Position numbers and translations under genes: made by a program. DNA of 64,000 bases, from positions 15,657 to 79,656 of IMG/VR virus record IMGVR_UViG_3300044723_007907. One strand, 5' to 3'. Positions 3-38,194 of the stretch are shown piece by piece (the stretch's first letter is position 1; every line of letters begins with the position of its first letter). Source of the DNA: a virus (taxonomy: Duplodnaviria > Caudoviricetes). The notes under the pieces are model-generated. The model did not search any database and was not told where the DNA came from. It worked only from the letters and a program-made list of their open reading frames with translations.

Positions 3-1226
3 GACGTAAATCTAGCCACCTCGCTAGACTTTCAGATACATCTATCTGATTATATTGATTTGGTAACCGAGCTAGCAGATGAAGTGGCATTAAATATAAA
101 CTACTGGCATACTGACGCACATAGCGATCCAACGACTAGTAAAATAGAATTTTACAAACAGCTCAATGCCGGTAATTTTGATCTCAAGTCCTCAAAAGAC
201 GGTGTGACCAAGAGAGATGTAACTGACAAGCAACTGCTCAACAAGAATTATAGAGATCAACTACCAGATCAACTCAAGATAAAAACAGCATCTGGTAACA
301 AATATGATGAACCTAAACTAATCGGTGATGATCAAATAGAGGTACAAACAACAGTTACTACGCGAAAATGGACTGGCGATCCGGACATACAATCTGTAGG
401 TAAGTGGGAAATAGAAACAACCACAACTGACAGCAAACAGCCTGTAACACCGATATTAGATATTCAAAAAACACCACCAACAATTTCTTCCGCTTTTGGT
501 ATGAAAGATTTGTCTGCATGGTTCAAATTGTGGTGGATGGATAAATTCACAACAGCACACGATGTTGTGAAGCAGGATTTGATCGAGTTGTTAGGTGATG
601 ATAATGAATATTTTGTTAATTTTAGTGAGAGTGTTGGTCAGCTTAAAAATATAAATGATACATTCGATACAAGCACCTTACCGGTGTGGGACACAGAGGT
701 ACAAGCCTATGGATCTACATACTCAATACCCACAACAATCGCAGGAGTGGCTAAATATTGTACTCGCAGTGAATCCATTGCATTCAATGATCAGCTATCA
801 AAACATACCAACAAGATATTTCGTGTCAATGTAGCTAATATGATGGAGGATGCTAGCAGAGACGAGCTTGTCACCGGTGTTATGCCAAGCTTCTCAACAG
901 ATAGTCATGGTAATAATTTTGTCAATGATCAATTACATTTTGACAGAATGTATCAACAGGTTGAAGTGGTTGATGCCGCGATAAGAGAACACTTAAAGGG
1001 GTTGTATGATGTATTGATGTTGTTGAGTGATAGAGAAAATTATATGGTTGTCAACAAACCCAAACAAATCATGATGAAAGTAGAGGATTTCACATTAGCG
1101 GTAGATTTATTCAAGAACAGAATAAAATCATACGAATTGACGGATGATGATATAACGGTCAGTAGATACGGAAAACCGGCCGGATACACCAACAACAGTA
1201 CAAATGATAGCAATTTAGCGGTTTAA
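3..1226 (+). CDS. Hypothetical protein, 5'-truncated by the window edge
   Basis: The frame of ORF 60..1226 stays open back to position 3; no recognisable motif. Confidence 0.7.
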   Translation, partial: DVNLATSLDFQIHLSDYIDLVTELADEVALNINYWHTDAHSDPTTSKIEFYKQLNAGNFDLKSSKDGVTKRDVTDKQLLNKNYRDQLPDQLKIKTASGNKYDEPKLIGDDQIEVQTTVTTRKWTGDPDIQSVGKWEIETTTTDSKQPVTPILDIQKTPPTISSAFGMKDLSAWFKLWWMDKFTTAHDVVKQDLIELLGDDNEYFVNFSESVGQLKNINDTFDTSTLPVWDTEVQAYGSTYSIPTTIAGVAKYCTRSESIAFNDQLSKHTNKIFRVNVANMMEDASRDELVTGVMPSFSTDSHGNNFVNDQLHFDRMYQQVEVVDAAIREHLKGLYDVLMLLSDRENYMVVNKPKQIMMKVEDFTLAVDLFKNRIKSYELTDDDITVSRYGKPAGYTNNSTNDSNLAV

Positions 1227-1687
1227 TCACTATCAGAAATCTCCGCGTCAACATCAATCAAATCTCCAGAGTTGAACAATTGTTCCATGATCTCTTCTCT
1301 GGTGAATGTACTCTTTTCTTCTTTGCTATTAGCGAGAGCTTGCTTGGATTGTATGTCCATTGTTTTAACGGTGATCTGAGCATCAGCGCGCTGTTGCTGT
1401 ATCAGTATCTTGTTTAGCGCTTCAATCGCACCAGTACTTGCTTTGTACAGCTCAGCTAATGAATGTACGTCCTCTGGTTCTGGTGCACTAATTATATACT
1501 CTTTTATACTATCGATTGTCTGCATACTGTCTTGTATTAACCTGCCAGTGTTGTTCAAAACAAATTGCTCCAAATCTTTTTTATCAAGTACAAATGGTTC
1601 CTTTTGTACCTGTTTAGCCATCTTAGTAGAATCTTTGAGTTGTTCTAATAGTGACTTAACGTCTTGCTTGTCCATTTCTTCGTCCAT
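1223..1687 (-). CDS. Helical protein, possibly T4 gp16-like terminase small subunit
   Basis: 154 aa, helical; SAPEPEDVHSLAELYKASTGAIEALNKIL loosely resembles the gp16 HPRAYEV..QLIK region; preceded by a late motif. Confidence 0.35.
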   Translation of the reverse strand: MDEEMDKQDVKSLLEQLKDSTKMAKQVQKEPFVLDKKDLEQFVLNNTGRLIQDSMQTIDSIKEYIISAPEPEDVHSLAELYKASTGAIEALNKILIQQQRADAQITVKTMDIQSKQALANSKEEKSTFTREEIMEQLFNSGDLIDVDAEISDSD

Positions 1688-1694
1688 GTAATTA

Positions 1695-1702
1695 TATTTA
1701 TA
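1695..1702 (-). promoter_or_regulatory. T4-type late promoter TATAAATA
   Basis: Exact T4 gp55 consensus, 7 nt before the ATG at 1687. Confidence 0.7.
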
Positions 1703-1710
1703 ATAAGTTG

Positions 1711-1739
1711 TTGAAAAACAAAGACTGATATATTATAAT
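1711..1739 (+). promoter_or_regulatory. Sigma70-type promoter TTGAAA-N17-TATAAT
   Basis: Consensus spacing; predicted +1 falls on the A of ATG 1746. Confidence 0.7.
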
Positions 1740-1745
1740 AAAAAT

Positions 1746-1895
1746 ATGATAACTGTAGAAGTACAAGGCCATGGATCATTTGTTATACATAATGACAAAT
1801 TAAACGATTTGTTGAGCTGGTTAAGATCGAATTCGATGCCAGTGGAGGTTAATGTTCGTCCTCTGAGAGATGATGAAACGTTATTAAACGGATGA
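1746..1895 (+). CDS. Small hypothetical protein, 49 aa (MITVEVQGHGSFVIHNDKLNDLLSWLRSN...), missing from the ORF track
   Basis: Read by hand; directly after the sigma70 promoter; stop overlaps the dUTPase start (ATGA). Confidence 0.7.
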   Translation: MITVEVQGHGSFVIHNDKLNDLLSWLRSNSMPVEVNVRPLRDDETLLNG

Positions 1896-2329
1896 TTGTA
1901 AAACTTAAAAAAACACATCAAGACGCTGTGCTACCGACAGCAAACAACAAAGAACTTGAGACTGGTGATACTGGATTCGATCTAGTAGCAGTTGAGGATA
2001 GATATGTCGATTCGCGTGGTTCATCAGTAGTACCTGTAGGTTTAACGCTAGCGGATATCACTCCAGGTTACTGGATCCGGATCGAACCTAGAAGTGGTCT
2101 AGGATTCAAACATAACATTCAACCACATCTAGGTGTTATTGATAATGGTTATAGGGGTGATTTGGGTGTCAAGTTGTACAATTTCAGTGATGTGGGCTAC
2201 CATGTTAACAAAGGTGACAAGATAGCTCAGCTAGTTGTTTACGAATTGATCCAACCGGTGTTCGAATTTGTTGATCAAGTTACAGACACATCCCGCGGGG
2301 AACGAGGATTTGGTTCCTCTGGCGTGTAA
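1892..2329 (+). CDS. dut: Trimeric dUTPase
   Basis: All five motifs: GDTGFDL, EPRSGL, GVIDNGYRGDL, KIAQLV, RGERGFGSSG. Confidence 0.97.
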   Translation: MIVKLKKTHQDAVLPTANNKELETGDTGFDLVAVEDRYVDSRGSSVVPVGLTLADITPGYWIRIEPRSGLGFKHNIQPHLGVIDNGYRGDLGVKLYNFSDVGYHVNKGDKIAQLVVYELIQPVFEFVDQVTDTSRGERGFGSSGV

Positions 2330-2333
2330 TTAT

Positions 2334-3257
2334 ATGTTTGATAATCTTTGGATTGAGAAATATCGACCGACTAAATTAGTCGATATAATTCTAAGCGATT
2401 CGAATCGCCGTGTATTAACTAAATTCGATGAGCAAAAAGAGATACCCAATCTTTTGTTTGTGGGTCATGCTGGTATCGGCAAGACAAGTTTAGCTAAATT
2501 GCTTTGTAAAGATGTATTACAATGTCAATACTTGTATATAAATGCGAGTGATGAAAATGGTATTGATACAATACGGACCAAGGTTACCAATTTTGCTAGG
2601 ACTAAGAGTTTTGACGGTAAAATTAAGTGTATCATACTAGATGAAACAGATGGGCTGAGTTTGGATGCTCAGAGAGCGTTGAGAAACACCATGGAGGAAC
2701 ACTCCTCAATCACTAGATTCATACTCACAGCAAACTATAAACATAGAATAATACCACCTCTACTGAGTCGCTGTCAGTCTTTGGATCTGACACCTCCACC
2801 GGATTTGTGCATTGATAGGATCAAGAAAATATTAGAGCTTGAGCAGATTGAAGTGTCTGAATTTGAAAAGCTACACACTTATGTTAAGACATGCTTACCT
2901 GATTTGAGAAGATGTATAAATGAAATACAAAAAAATACACATCAAGGTAAGTTGTTTTTAAATGAACTAGTCAAGGTCAAGGATGCATTTGTAGAGAGTT
3001 TATATAATATCACGCGTCAAGGTTTGGCGATAAAGGCTCGGAAGAAGGTCATTGAAAATGAACATGTGTTCGGTGGTGATTATAATGAGTTACTTAGATC
3101 CTTGTTTAATTATGTAGATGAGGCCCCTGGTGTGAACGATTTAAAGAAATCTGAACACATGTTGATAGTGTCGGAGCATATATATAGATCCGCGTTTGTC
3201 GCAGATCCTGAAATTAACTTTTATAGTTGTTTGTTAACTTTATCTACCAACAAGTGA
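2334..3257 (+). CDS. gp44: Sliding-clamp loader AAA+ subunit (T4 gp44 / RFC small subunit)
   Basis: WIEKYRP, Walker A GHAGIGKTS, Walker B ILDETD, SRC motif; start reassigned to ATG 2334. Confidence 0.93.
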   Translation: MFDNLWIEKYRPTKLVDIILSDSNRRVLTKFDEQKEIPNLLFVGHAGIGKTSLAKLLCKDVLQCQYLYINASDENGIDTIRTKVTNFARTKSFDGKIKCIILDETDGLSLDAQRALRNTMEEHSSITRFILTANYKHRIIPPLLSRCQSLDLTPPPDLCIDRIKKILELEQIEVSEFEKLHTYVKTCLPDLRRCINEIQKNTHQGKLFLNELVKVKDAFVESLYNITRQGLAIKARKKVIENEHVFGGDYNELLRSLFNYVDEAPGVNDLKKSEHMLIVSEHIYRSAFVADPEINFYSCLLTLSTNK

Positions 3258-3422
3258 TTTTAAAAATCTACCAACAGCGCTAAACGCTCTGCAGATACAG
3301 ATCTTAGACATGCAACATTGTTTTTGCTCACAGCATGCTTGTTTCTGAGGTTTCTCCTCAACACGTTTTTTTCTAGGACGACCACGTGGTCTCTTAGGTT
3401 TGGTTGTTTTTTTCTCTGGCAT
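3240..3422 (-). CDS. Small basic protein with AT-hook (PRGRPRK) and six Cys
   Basis: KPKRPRGRPRKKR and CCEQKQCCMSKICIC; ATG 3 nt after the stop of the upstream gene. Confidence 0.65.
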   Translation of the reverse strand: MPEKKTTKPKRPRGRPRKKRVEEKPQKQACCEQKQCCMSKICICRAFSAVGRFLKSLVGR

Positions 3423-28190: not shown

Positions 28191-28358
28191 CTATATGAAC
28201 TTATACAAGATCTCTAACTGTTTTGTTCCTAAATATTTGCAGAAATATGCACAAAATTCAGCCACTTCTCGTGGGGTCCACCCGGCATGCTTGATGTATT
28301 GACCCACCTCAAAGTACATGTGGTCCTGCCACATCTCAGTTAAATCTATATATTTCAC
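28191..28358 (-). CDS. Small hypothetical protein, 55 aa (MKYIDLTEMWQDHMYFEVGQY...), missing from the ORF track
   Basis: Read by hand; GTG start overlaps the DUF1501 stop (GTGA) and the ORF fills the gap. Confidence 0.6.
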   Translation of the reverse strand: MKYIDLTEMWQDHMYFEVGQYIKHAGWTPREVAEFCAYFCKYLGTKQLEILYKFI

Positions 28359-29620
28359 AAGATTATGTCCATGATTGGTTCACCTTCATTAGCAACTTTG
28401 AACGGTCGACCACTTGGAGAGTAATGTATATCGAGTGTTGATATACCTAATAACCTAGCGATAGTGGCGTTCAAATCTTCTGGTTTTTGTGGATTTTCTG
28501 CAACACGCTTTCCGTGTTCATCACTGGAACCGTAAACTGTACCACCTTTGATACCCGCTCCGGCGAACATGGCACTGAATGCATTGGGCCAGTGATCTCT
28601 ACCATCACGTGGATTTATATCTGGTGTTCTGCCAAATTCAGATGTCAACACAACAAGTGTCTCTGACAACAACCCTCTTCTCTCCAGATCCAACAACAAC
28701 GCACCGATGGCCTTGTCTATATCAGCGCAATTGGCTTCAACTCGCGTGAAGTTGTCATCATGTGTGTCCCAGCCTCCGCGTGTCACTTCAACATATCGAA
28801 CCCGATTCTCAATCAATCTCCTAGCCAACAAACAGCCTTGACCGAAATTAGATGTTCCGTATAGTTCATGTATATATTCAGGCTCTTGTGTTATGTCGAA
28901 TGCATTGATGTCGTTACTGTTCATCAATCGAACTGCGTCTTTGTAAAGATCCGAATAAGCACGTACCTTTTTGATTGGAAATTTCTCTCGGAACTCACTA
29001 TTCAAAATGCTCGCCATGTTCAATCTCGCATCAAAATTATCATCAGTCAGGTAATCAGCCTTTTTACTATTTGCCAACCCAGCGCGTGGATTCATGATGG
29101 GCACCGGGCCGTACTGACTCTCCAGATAACCAGGGCTACCATAACCACCACCCACCTTGACAAAACCCGGTATGGTCGAGTTGAGTTTGCCTTTGAGTTT
29201 CGCAACCCAGCTACCAAATGTGGGGTGTGATATAGTTCCACGTTTCTGATAGCTTGTGTGCATCAGATAACCAGCCTGCATGTGTGCGCCTTGGTTGCTT
29301 GTAACTGATCGTACCAACGCTGCATTGTGCATGTGTTGTGCGATAGTAGGGAGATATTGTGACAATATGATATCATCAGCTGATGTGTGTATAGCTTCAA
29401 CTGGTCCGGCTTGATCAGTCCCGGGTTTGGGATCAAATGTATCAACATGGCTCATGGCCCCGCTCATGTTCAAATATATAACTGATCTGGCACGTGCCAT
29501 TAGTTTTGATGGACCTAGGTCATCAGCGTGTATATAATTACCAGTCAGCGGCAACAATCCTACACCCAAACATGTCTTAGCTAACTCGCTTATAAATTGT
29601 CTTCTTGGTAACTCGTTCAT
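28355..29620 (-). CDS. DUF1501 family protein with Tat-like signal peptide
   Basis: PRRQFI...GVGLLP; GAMSHVDTFDPKP; LLARRLIE..VRYVEV..GGWDTH; SEFGRTP.IN...GRDHWP. Confidence 0.92.
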   Translation of the reverse strand: MNELPRRQFISELAKTCLGVGLLPLTGNYIHADDLGPSKLMARARSVIYLNMSGAMSHVDTFDPKPGTDQAGPVEAIHTSADDIILSQYLPTIAQHMHNAALVRSVTSNQGAHMQAGYLMHTSYQKRGTISHPTFGSWVAKLKGKLNSTIPGFVKVGGGYGSPGYLESQYGPVPIMNPRAGLANSKKADYLTDDNFDARLNMASILNSEFREKFPIKKVRAYSDLYKDAVRLMNSNDINAFDITQEPEYIHELYGTSNFGQGCLLARRLIENRVRYVEVTRGGWDTHDDNFTRVEANCADIDKAIGALLLDLERRGLLSETLVVLTSEFGRTPDINPRDGRDHWPNAFSAMFAGAGIKGGTVYGSSDEHGKRVAENPQKPEDLNATIARLLGISTLDIHYSPSGRPFKVANEGEPIMDIIL

Positions 29621-31099: not shown

Positions 31100-32062
31100 T
31101 TATGCGGCAATCAATTGTTTTTGTTCCATTTCTTGTAGGTGATTGATAGCATAATCTTTTTGTTTCAACTCCACATCCCAATCGATCGATTGATTTTTAG
31201 TCACTGTGGTGTCAAATTGGTCACGAAATGCTTGTGGTGTGCTCGTGGCAAAATCCACATGTGCTCGCGGATTGTCGTTGGCACCACCTTCACTGAAATG
31301 AAACAACGGACAACATCCATGAGCATGCCAGGTCTCGTAACATCTCTCGAACGCTTCCTCAACACTCCATTCACCAGGATTACATCGATGATGTAAATTG
31401 TCATATGTGATTGGAATGCCAATCTCTTTGTGTATCAAATTGTACAACCGATCCGGACTCCATAGGCCTTTGTCTTCGTTTTCTAACACCAATCGAGATT
31501 TCACACTATCATCAAGTCGATCGAAATTCTTGATGAATTTCTTGGCGATATCTTGTGGATCACCTGCGCTGCGACTCATGTGTATGTTCAACGGGTACCA
31601 GTAACTGCGACTGTGTTCCACCATCTGATCCATCAACCAGCCGTGATGTGCCAGTTCACCTATTGTACGATCAACAACACCATCATTGGCGCTGCACAAC
31701 ACATTGAAATGATCTGGATGGAAGCTGAGCCGGAATTGTGACGGAGCAAATTGCTTGGTGAATGCTCGTATCTCAGCAAATTTGTCTTGTATCATGGTGG
31801 CGTTTGGTAAGTCATCCAGACCCACATTGGCCTTTTCTAGATTGAACAACGGAAACAACGTGCTACTGATGCGATAACCCCAGCCGTTGCTTCTGGCAAG
31901 TTTCATGGTCTCCAGAGTGGTTTGTAGATTTTCTAATGCACGTTCACCTAGTGTTTGTAATGCATCTGTTCGATCGTGTTTCTCGAACTGCGTGTATCTC
32001 ATGGCTCGGTGATTGTGTCCTTGTTTTTTCAGCGCTAAGCTGATGCAGCATAAATTATACAT
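31100..32062 (-). CDS. uvsE: UV-damage endonuclease UvsE/UvdE
   Basis: YRISSTLFP, RLSFHPDHFNVLCS, LVLENED, YDNLHH, FHFSE, RAHVDF, DVELKQKDYAI. Confidence 0.92.
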   Translation of the reverse strand: MYNLCCISLALKKQGHNHRAMRYTQFEKHDRTDALQTLGERALENLQTTLETMKLARSNGWGYRISSTLFPLFNLEKANVGLDDLPNATMIQDKFAEIRAFTKQFAPSQFRLSFHPDHFNVLCSANDGVVDRTIGELAHHGWLMDQMVEHSRSYWYPLNIHMSRSAGDPQDIAKKFIKNFDRLDDSVKSRLVLENEDKGLWSPDRLYNLIHKEIGIPITYDNLHHRCNPGEWSVEEAFERCYETWHAHGCCPLFHFSEGGANDNPRAHVDFATSTPQAFRDQFDTTVTKNQSIDWDVELKQKDYAINHLQEMEQKQLIAA

Positions 32063-36051: not shown

Positions 36052-36705
36052 TTAGAACTTGATTCCAATACCAGCGGAAAACACTGTTTCGCTGTCAACA
36101 TCTTCTGCATCAACATAATCAACTCCAGCGCTTGCCACAAGACCACCAAACTCACGACTCAGTAAACCACCGATCTCGTAATAGTTTGTGTCTCCAGCCA
36201 ACGTGTCAGACACACCAGCCGCACCAGAGATGGTCAGATCAGCAACATCGATATCGATGGTGTGACTCAATCCGAGTTCACCGCTGGTCAGACTATCATC
36301 CAGATCTTGGTTGATTGTGAGACTGGGACTCAACAACATGTCAAGTTCCAACGACACGAACAACTCACCACGTGCATCTCCAGGCACATCCTCAAGATGC
36401 AAGTAACCGAGTTCCAGGTCAATGTCACCATAGCTTTTAGCTAAACCAACAGCGAATTGATAACTGTCAACCGACTGCAAACCTTGATTGGCGAATGCGG
36501 ACACAAATGCATCAGCAACTCCAACATTGGTGGACAATTTGGCTTGGACTTGAGTGCTCTCGTCGGAGACTTTTGCTCCACGGAAGTAGTAATCGCTGGT
36601 GTACCCGAATCCGAGTTCACCTTGAAAACTGCTACCGCTTTCAGCAGCACCTGCGTTGATAGTGAGAGCGCATACTAGCGCCAACAACTTTAGTTTCGTT
36701 TTCAT
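36052..36705 (-). CDS. Outer-membrane beta-barrel, TIGR02001/TorF-like putative porin
   Basis: Sec signal peptide; GYTSDYYFRG motif; alternating beta pattern; terminal GIGIKF. Confidence 0.8.
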   Translation of the reverse strand: MKTKLKLLALVCALTINAGAAESGSSFQGELGFGYTSDYYFRGAKVSDESTQVQAKLSTNVGVADAFVSAFANQGLQSVDSYQFAVGLAKSYGDIDLELGYLHLEDVPGDARGELFVSLELDMLLSPSLTINQDLDDSLTSGELGLSHTIDIDVADLTISGAAGVSDTLAGDTNYYEIGGLLSREFGGLVASAGVDYVDAEDVDSETVFSAGIGIKF

Positions 36706-36747: not shown

Positions 36748-37755
36748 TCAAAAGTCATCATCAAGAGCTCCAGAATTTTGATAATCTGTAACCTTGGTTT
36801 CGAAGAAATTCTTTTGCTTGCTCAAATCAATTGTTTCGCTCAACCAAGGAAACGGATTAACATCCTTATCGTATCTGAACTTCATACCCAAACCTTCGAG
36901 TCTACGATTGGCGATGTGTTGCATGTAATCAACAAACATTTCCGCGTTGAGACCGAGTATTCCGGTTGGAAGCACATCCTTTGCGTATTCAACTTCCAGC
37001 TTAACTGCATCCTTGAGATATTCAGTCAATTCATTATCTAGTTCTTCGTTCCAAACATCAGGGTGCTGTTCACGTATCTTGTTCAACAAATTTGTACCAA
37101 ATTTTATATGTAAACTCTCATCACGTAGAGTGTATTGTATCTGCTCAGCAATACCAGGTATCTTTTCTGACAGAGCCAATAGCATAGCAAAACCACTGAA
37201 AAAGAATGTACCTTCACAAACAATCCAGTAAATAAATGCAGCTTTGATGATCTCTCGAACTCCTTCTGGTGTTTGGCTGTCCACAGGATTGGTTGCCAAA
37301 TCGCTAGTTATTTTCATCAAGAAATCATCTTTGGCTTTGATGCTTGGTATCGTTTCATATGCTTGGTATACCTCGTTTATATCAAGGTCCAAACTGTCAC
37401 ATATATAAACTATCGTGTCGTTGTGCAAACACTCTTCATACATCTGTCTGCTCATGTACTGTCGGCATTCCGGATCAGTAACGTATCTGAACATGGTGAA
37501 CAGATTGTTACCAACAAGACTCTCACTACCAGCGAAAAAACCCAAACATCTCTTGATGAGCAATCGTTCATCATCAGACAAAACATTGTCTTTTTTCCAG
37601 TTCTGTATGTCCTTCACCATCGGTACCTCCTCTGGTGTCCAGTTGTTGTTTTTTCCTAGCTTGTATAGATCCCAAGCCCATTTGTTCGTGTGTGGTAATA
37701 TCTGGTTTACACCAGCTGTATCTTGTCCTAATATTTTATCTGAATGTTGTGTCAT
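36748..37755 (-). CDS. nrdB: Ribonucleotide reductase beta subunit, class Ic-like
   Basis: NW.PEE.PM.KD, FFAGSESLVGNN, EECLH, EGTFFFSGF, RDESLH, NFFETKVTDY; probable start ATG 37755. Confidence 0.95.
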   Translation of the reverse strand: MTQHSDKILGQDTAGVNQILPHTNKWAWDLYKLGKNNNWTPEEVPMVKDIQNWKKDNVLSDDERLLIKRCLGFFAGSESLVGNNLFTMFRYVTDPECRQYMSRQMYEECLHNDTIVYICDSLDLDINEVYQAYETIPSIKAKDDFLMKITSDLATNPVDSQTPEGVREIIKAAFIYWIVCEGTFFFSGFAMLLALSEKIPGIAEQIQYTLRDESLHIKFGTNLLNKIREQHPDVWNEELDNELTEYLKDAVKLEVEYAKDVLPTGILGLNAEMFVDYMQHIANRRLEGLGMKFRYDKDVNPFPWLSETIDLSKQKNFFETKVTDYQNSGALDDDF

Positions 37756-37846
37756 ACGTGTGTATTTAGTATACAACATATGCGCAAAACAGCAAGTTTG
37801 AATAAAAAAATATTTTTTTTCTCAAGTACTGAATTATAACAACAAG

Positions 37847-38194
37847 TTACAGAAGAAATACCTGCTTTCCTGTGTATCCATTGTATATTCCTTGTGGGCC
37901 GGCGGTGCTATCTGTATACTCATCATACGTTACAGAACGCCCGGTGGTGTCAATGGCAGATTTTTGTGTTACTGTTTGTTCTCTGTATTGTTCCGGTTGG
38001 TAGTATTCTAGATCCATTCCTGGGTTGCTCGTGCATTTGCCTTGATTGTCCATTGTGTGTGAACCCGGTGTATGGTTGTATTGATACAAGTCTAATTCTC
38101 TATATGTTACTAACTTACCCGTTGAATCTACACGGGTCTTAGTTGTTATTATAGGTGTCGCTCTTCTTATGTATGATTTATCAGTACCTGCCAT
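37847..38194 (-). CDS. Hypothetical late protein with an internal repeat, between nrdA and nrdB
   Basis: TAAATA-N5-ATG; repeats TKTRVDSTGKLVTYRE and QKSAIDTTGRSVTYDE. Confidence 0.65.
   Translation of the reverse strand: MAGTDKSYIRRATPIITTKTRVDSTGKLVTYRELDLYQYNHTPGSHTMDNQGKCTSNPGMDLEYYQPEQYREQTVTQKSAIDTTGRSVTYDEYTDSTAGPQGIYNGYTGKQVFLL

Follow-up and report, generated by a model that had tools for sequence, protein, structure and literature searches.

A phage class Ic-like ribonucleotide reductase β subunit with isoleucine at the radical-tyrosine site and its relatives in small-genome Alphaproteobacteria

Introduction

The solved ribonucleotide reductase (RNR) β subunits closest to the phage protein analysed here are Chlamydia trachomatis R2c (1SYY, 4D8F/4D8G, 4M1H/4M1I) and a second R2c protein (6Y2N), with which it shares full-length likeness, Glu as the first metal ligand and the absence of the radical Tyr. 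Where the two solved R2c proteins have Phe at the radical site, the phage protein has Ile. Departures from Phe at this position are on record: PMC3824934, citing Högbom 2010, reports the exchange of Phe for Leu, Ile or Val in R2c proteins as documented, and the RNRdb rule assigns to subclass Ic any NrdBz whose Tyr site is occupied by Phe, Leu or Val (PMC6370689).

A second point of comparison comes from marine viruses. A 2026 bioRxiv preprint described a GOV 2.0 clade nearest to NrdAz, comprising 269 α sequences or 1.44% of the retrieved RNRs, whose β subunits have no Tyr and bear Ile or Val instead; the authors named it ‘subclass Ic-like’ (PMC12918982). The clade was without RNRdb references and without a characterized member, and its abundance was anti-correlated with predicted iron; the authors left its cofactor open, with no clear single-metal pattern emerging (PMC12918982). 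Here we describe the RNR genes of a phage that matches this clade by description, together with a group of bacterial relatives.

RNR genes of a T4-like phage fragment

The window, the whole 64,000-nucleotide stretch of DNA that was analysed, belongs to a 79.7-kb IMG/VR virus record with an estimated completeness of 34%. Its phage markers are a portal of the T4 type, an OB domain of the baseplate spike and a tail-fibre gene, and together with the completeness estimate they mark the record as part of the genome of a large T4-like phage. An ARAGORN search of the window detected neither tRNA nor tmRNA. A UvdE UV-endonuclease is encoded at 31100–32062 on the minus strand (E 6e-37).

The nrdB reading frame translates into a 335-residue protein (P0001). 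Residues 17–301 match positions 2–281 of the 281-position PF00268 model (E 4.7e-74), and the protein scores 428 bits against the NCBIfam equivalog NF005550, above its cut-off of 309. Both NrdB motifs, FFAGSESLVGNN and EECLHNDTIVYIC, are found in it, and the family match, the pair of ExxH motifs and two additional carboxylates identify it as a class I RNR small subunit. The earlier note on this DNA, made from the sequence alone, had placed the start at 37755, which agrees with the length of 335 residues in most homologues; the longest open reading frame begins at 37779. The sequence TAAATA precedes the nrdB start codon by 7 nt, and no Shine–Dalgarno sequence is evident there (37756–37775, minus strand).

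The accompanying nrdA lies upstream on the same strand and supplies the sole RNR barrel of the viral record. By Pfam, its product comprises one ATP-cone, the all-α Ribonuc_red_lgN domain and the Ribonuc_red_lgC barrel; it scores 1057 bits against NF005544 (cut-off 965) and finds its best PDB match in 5im3 (E 8e-248), which we take to be the NrdAz-type α subunit of Pseudomonas aeruginosa. The catalytic set is present, with C227, N439/C441/E443, the Y777–Y778 pair and the C-terminal cysteines C806, C815 and C818. The α subunit is thus of the NrdAz type in the phage as in the C. trachomatis system; set against that system, the phage NrdA has one ATP-cone and its gene is phage-borne. Synteny of nrdA and nrdB is held in all 11 of the related loci compared. 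Coordinates are collected in Table 1.

Table 1. Positions in the window of the RNR genes and of the NrdB residues discussed in the text (Ct, C. trachomatis R2c)
Feature	Position	Strand	Basis
nrdB, class I RNR β, R2c/class Ic-like, Ile/Val lineage	36748..37755	-	PF00268, NF005550, 1syy E 7.8e-110
Tyr325, C-terminal radical-transfer Tyr; Ct Y338, E. coli Y356	36781..36783	-	alignment + codon
E213-x-x-H216, second ExxH metal-binding motif; Ct E227/H230	37108..37119	-	alignment + codons
Tyr208, aligned with Ct Y222	37132..37134	-	alignment + codon
Phe185, second-sphere residue between the sites; Ct F197	shortly after Glu181	-	alignment
Glu181, metal ligand; Ct E193	37213..37215	-	alignment + codon
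Ile115 (ATA), radical-tyrosine site; E. coli Y122, Ct F127	37411..37413	-	alignment + codon
E108-x-x-H111, first ExxH metal-binding motif; Ct E120/H123	37423..37434	-	alignment + codons
Glu78 (GAG), first metal ligand; Ct E89	37522..37524	-	alignment + codon
Trp39, aligned with Ct W51	37639..37641	-	alignment + codon
orf115, 115-aa ORFan between nrdA and nrdB	37847..38194	-	no family match
nrdA, class I RNR α, 819 aa	38203..40662	-	Pfam, NF005544, PDB 5im3

Between the two genes, orf115 matched no family in Pfam or NCBIfam, and tblastn recovered no counterpart of it in the 11 related nrdAB loci, viral and bacterial, that were compared; in two related loci (L008 and L013) nrdA and nrdB are nearly contiguous. 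We read orf115 as a local insertion that stands outside the enzyme. Its ATG is preceded by TAAATA at a distance of 5 nt, and an A/T-rich stretch (gaaaaaaaatattttttt) lies between orf115 and nrdB. Directly downstream of nrdB, at 36052–36705 on the same minus strand, a 217-residue signal-peptide protein without a Pfam match is encoded; counterparts that are 34–42% identical occur near nrdB in six related viral loci, which makes it a conserved neighbour in this phage group.

Some relatives carry interrupted RNR genes. In two IMG/VR relatives (L006, positions 3–3272, and also L005), the nrdA reading frame is interrupted precisely at the catalytic cysteine: its first part runs ...SSNL and then CVVGDTEI..., an intein-like N-terminus, and the second part runs ...NNILVHN and then CTEITL, an intein-like C-terminus, with about 1.2 kb out of frame between them. 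This arrangement looks like a split-intein ‘fractured gene’ with an intervening gene. Among the NrdB representatives, many (P0123, P0125, P0128, P0130–P0135, P0137 and others) are 614–684 residues long and match P0001 in two stretches, broken near residues 215–216; a break at the second ExxH motif is what would be expected of intein-containing nrdB genes.

Comparison with solved β subunits

A phmmer comparison with all PDB sequences ranked C. trachomatis R2c first (1syy, E 7.8e-110), and further R2c entries followed at about 1e-109 to 1e-110 (4d8f and the F127Y variant 2ani) and at 9.5e-100 (the second R2c protein, 6y2n). The best β subunit outside R2c, of the Tyr-bearing class Ia type, reached an E value of 3e-36. 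E. coli-type chains scored about 1e-12, and 6cwo, 6cwp and 6cwq, which we take to be class Id entries from F. johnsoniae, about 2e-12 to 1e-11. For 6CWP, the assignment to F. johnsoniae class Id is given in PMC8463856. These weak scores and the absence of the Tyr set P0001 apart from class Id. An R2lox assignment fares no better: the best such NCBIfam model, NF006200, gave 65 bits against a cut-off of 194 and, contrary to R2lox, P0001 has Y325 and the C-terminal tail and adjoins nrdA.

The alignment of P0001 with 1syy (370 bits) is full-length and ungapped around both motifs, and a chance match of short motifs can be dismissed because the motifs sit within it. In this HMMER alignment, Glu78 falls on C. 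trachomatis E89 and Ile115 on F127, the correspondence that the earlier note had drawn from the two motifs. Its reading of the codons is likewise correct, with Glu standing where class Ia has Asp and Ile occupying the position of the radical tyrosine. That note had also named another Tyr at the radical site as an outcome that would overturn its reading; the aligned position is Ile115, the equivalent of F127.

The remaining elements of an R2c protein are retained. All six ligands (E78, E108, H111, E181, E213 and H216) are kept, and the C-terminal Tyr325 is followed by an acidic tail, GALDDDF. Trp39 and Tyr208 align with W51 and Y222, which in C. trachomatis R2c we take to be the electron-relay Trp and a relay residue specific to activation, respectively. 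Equivalents of W51, Y222, F197 and Y338, as well as of all the other ligands, are thus common to P0001 and C. trachomatis R2c; the role given here to F197 is taken from PMC4118035.

P0001 accordingly combines the sequence features expected of class Ic: a redox-inert residue (Ile115) replaces the radical Tyr, Glu replaces Asp as the first ligand (Glu78), the relay residues and the R1-binding tail are in place (W39, Y208, Y325 and GALDDDF), and an intact NrdAz-group partner is encoded alongside. It is also nearest to the characterized R2c proteins among the β subclasses by phmmer scores, which are the measure of how C. trachomatis R2c and 6Y2N relate to the Ile/Val clade, these two proteins being absent from our trees. 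The class Ic (R2c-type) assignment proposed earlier for this NrdB thus holds at the sequence level, borne out by Glu78, the missing radical Tyr, the other ligands, the relay and the nearest solved relatives.

Ile and Val at the radical site

An aliphatic residue at this site in a phage class Ic enzyme had been called unusual. Part of that view stands: both solved R2c proteins have Phe, and we found no close relative of the phage NrdB lineage among the deposited phages in INPHARED. The nearest NrdB proteins there, from Acinetobacter phage MD-2021a and the P. putida phages vB_PpuM-*, are 40–42% identical over their full length and, unlike P0001, are NrdBz proteins with Asp and Tyr, of the canonical tyrosyl-radical (class Ia) type. 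In INPHARED, the Glu/Phe type was seen in a single virus, Aquificae Joseph's Coat Spring virus (34% identity).

The label is nevertheless overstated, as Ile is a trait of the lineage and aliphatic residues are frequent among Glu-type representatives and already reported. Across the 120 nearest database homologues (77–94% identity) and the query, the site is Ile in 109 and Val in 12, within a motif that reads EECLHNDT(I/V)VY(I/M); Ile is also found in all nine IMG/VR loci, at 62–84% identity. One homologue (P0030) lies on a 238-kb contig, and one close homologue of P0001 derives from Tara data. A private mutation or sequencing error as the source of Ile115 is ruled out by the lineage-wide occurrence of Ile or Val. 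At a wider scale, an exhaustive search of 50%-identity representatives returned, among its best 150 matches, 46 with Asp and Tyr, whereas those with Glu as first ligand were divided among Phe (27), Val (9), Leu (6), Ile (4) and Tyr (6). At this cluster level, aliphatic residues (19 for Val, Leu and Ile together) approach Phe in frequency.

Maximum-likelihood analysis recovered the Ile/Val clade as monophyletic with respect to Glu/Phe outgroups (ultrafast bootstrap 100, SH-aLRT 97). Switches between Ile and Val occur several times within the clade, the deeper branches of which are P0122/P0272, P0124, P0126, P0142 and P0156. In the wide tree, the Glu/Phe sequences do not form a single clade. Three residues that adjoin ligands are specific to the Ile/Val clade: N112 (His+1), C180 (before E181) and T209 (after Y208), each at least 97% conserved within it and present in at most 15% of Phe/Leu-type rows. 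These residues are the clade's own and set it apart from the solved R2c proteins; to judge from their placement, they could retune the metal site.

Five NrdBz-like representatives (P0177, P0198, P0239, P0241 and P0249) have Cys at the radical-tyrosine position, together with ligand exchanges (Ser, Gly or Asn for ligand 1, and Gln, Lys or Leu for carboxylates), and group together in the wide tree. They could be ligand-poor NrdB relatives.

Set beside the ‘subclass Ic-like’ clade of uncultured marine viruses, with its NrdAz-nearest α and Ile/Val β, the phage corresponds in its viral record, T4-like portal, NrdAz-type α subunit and Ile115, a membership that is matched by description. The phage NrdB is thus a further member of an Ile/Val lineage already flagged in print (PMC12918982).

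A sister clade in Alphaproteobacteria

A search through prokaryotic genomes, one for each species, identified two Alphaproteobacteria metagenome-assembled genomes (MAGs) whose NrdB proteins are 71–72% identical to that of the phage and have Ile at the site. Of 41 genomes nearest to one such MAG, 8 carry an NrdB of this lineage (66–73% identity), with genome sizes of 1.3–2.2 Mb; the remaining NrdB matches in the 41 are of a distant type, at about 22–32% identity. Five of the eight bacterial proteins were long enough for the trees, four with Ile and one with Val. Among 400 additional Alphaproteobacteria species, evenly sampled, no close NrdB match appeared beyond G001 and G003.

The bacterial genes are embedded in cellular DNA. 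In OZ244156.1, nrdAB of this lineage lies on a 1.65-Mb chromosome, with an NrdA about 60% identical to that of the phage, and its neighbours there are ordinary cellular genes, for a histidine methyltransferase, a redoxin and a DsbD-like protein. Gene order and the presence of Ile or Val are shared with the phage, whereas the MAG genes are cellular and chromosomal and are without the orf115 insertion that the phage has. In the maximum-likelihood tree the bacterial proteins form a clade (100/99) whose sister group is the main viral clade (99/98), and the two unite with support of 100/99. An Alphaproteobacteria clade with cellular flanks means that the Ile/Val lineage is not confined to viruses.

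In three of the MAGs (G001, G004 and G007), the Ile/Val-type nrdAB gave the sole match to PF00268 and PF02867, and NrdD was not found in them. As the only RNR found in these genomes, the variant would have to support DNA synthesis alone, and an RNR with Ile or Val at the site is thus very probably competent and functional. What is new here is this small-genome Alphaproteobacteria sister clade with an Ile/Val enzyme as the only RNR found; for a ‘subclass Ic-like’ clade that had no RNRdb reference, it supplies a bacterial counterpart.

These relationships bear on the host of the phage. The nearest cellular relatives of its RNR are Alphaproteobacteria, so its likeness to the Chlamydia enzyme is no evidence of a Chlamydia-like or PVC host. 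The window also encodes a full-length DUF1501 protein (28355–29620, minus strand; E 6e-107), which has no match in five Alphaproteobacteria MAGs of the RNR lineage; RNR kinship alone therefore names no host.

Proposed mechanism and alternatives

On the evidence of homology, nrdB probably encodes the β subunit of a complete phage aerobic class I RNR of the tyrosyl-radical-free R2c type, with a Mn/Fe oxidant. In such an enzyme, E78, E108, H111, E181, E213 and H216 would ligate a dinuclear centre in which Mn occupies site 1, beside Ile115, and Fe occupies site 2. Oxidation of this centre by O2 would give Mn(IV)/Fe(IV), and one electron delivered through Trp39 and Tyr208 would then yield a stable Mn(IV)/Fe(III) state that replaces the tyrosyl radical. 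In the α2β2 complex the acidic C-terminal tail of NrdB would dock onto NrdA, and the electron hole would move from the metal through Trp39 and Tyr325 of β to Tyr777/Tyr778 of α and on to Cys441, the thiyl radical of which would initiate nucleotide reduction. Ile115 would act as a redox-inert hydrophobic plug, exchangeable with Val, in the role of C. trachomatis Phe127. For the phage RNR we infer the metal identity, the oxidation states and the electron pathway from this likeness to R2c.

Glu as first ligand also occurs in Mn2-dependent class Id, and it is paired with Tyr in the six representative clusters counted above, so Glu together with a non-Tyr residue is not diagnostic of one metal. The Ile/Val lineage might instead rely on a different metal-centred oxidant, such as a Mn2(IV/III) centre of the class Id kind, and form a separate subclass of functional, tyrosyl-radical-free enzymes. 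Besides a first ligand that is not unique to class Ic, this proposal can draw on the clade's own N112, C180 and T209 beside the ligands, on its monophyly apart from the sampled Glu/Phe sequences, and on the preprint, which set the clade apart as ‘Ic-like’ and left its cofactor open (PMC12918982). Against it, similarity to the Mn/Fe R2c proteins (E 1e-110) far exceeds that to class Id β subunits (about 2e-12), the equivalents of the W51, Y222 and Y338 relay and of the inter-site F197 are all retained, and the Tyr that class Id keeps is absent from the Ile/Val clade. We consider a different metal centre unlikely.

A di-iron enzyme that places the oxidizing equivalent on another residue, such as Tyr117 two positions after Ile115, is very improbable. 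The Tyr is close by in sequence (I-V-Y), and cofactor use is plastic among class I β subunits, but an equivalent Tyr is present in C. trachomatis R2c (F-L-Y), so that nothing sets P0001 apart there. In C. trachomatis R2c that Tyr is reportedly no radical site, and the Fe/Fe form is said to be poorly active. That P0001 is a non-working RNR subunit, whether an inactive β′-like partner or an R2lox-type oxidase, is hardly credible: the radical tyrosine is absent and several NrdB-like representatives of the search have lost ligands, but here the six ligands, the C-terminal Tyr and the acidic R1-binding tail are intact, nrdB adjoins an intact nrdA in every relative, three bacterial genomes yielded no small subunit other than one of this type, and the R2lox families score far under threshold.

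Discussion

A more far-reaching proposal about the lineage, which we put forward as speculative and rather unlikely, is that the Ile/Val proteins are a functionally distinct class I subclass, different in cofactor or in redox tuning through Ile/Val115 together with N112, C180 and T209, and common to large marine T4-like phages and to a narrow group of small-genome Alphaproteobacteria that rely on it as their sole RNR. Such a subclass would perhaps be an adaptation to iron-poor open-ocean water. The bacterial sister clade offers a cellular source of the enzyme for expression and genetics.

For the window itself, the practical yield is a sound annotation of nrdB and a caution about inferring a host from a ‘Chlamydia-like’ RNR. 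More broadly, the RNR subclass sets which trace metals a phage needs for copying its genome. A tyrosyl-radical-free and probably Mn/Fe enzyme would halve the iron demand of the β subunit, and work on Chlamydia is said to have proposed that the Mn/Fe enzyme tolerates radical scavengers. The Ile/Val lineage is abundant in ocean viromes, as the 269 GOV 2.0 α sequences (PMC12918982) and the many database clusters found here attest.
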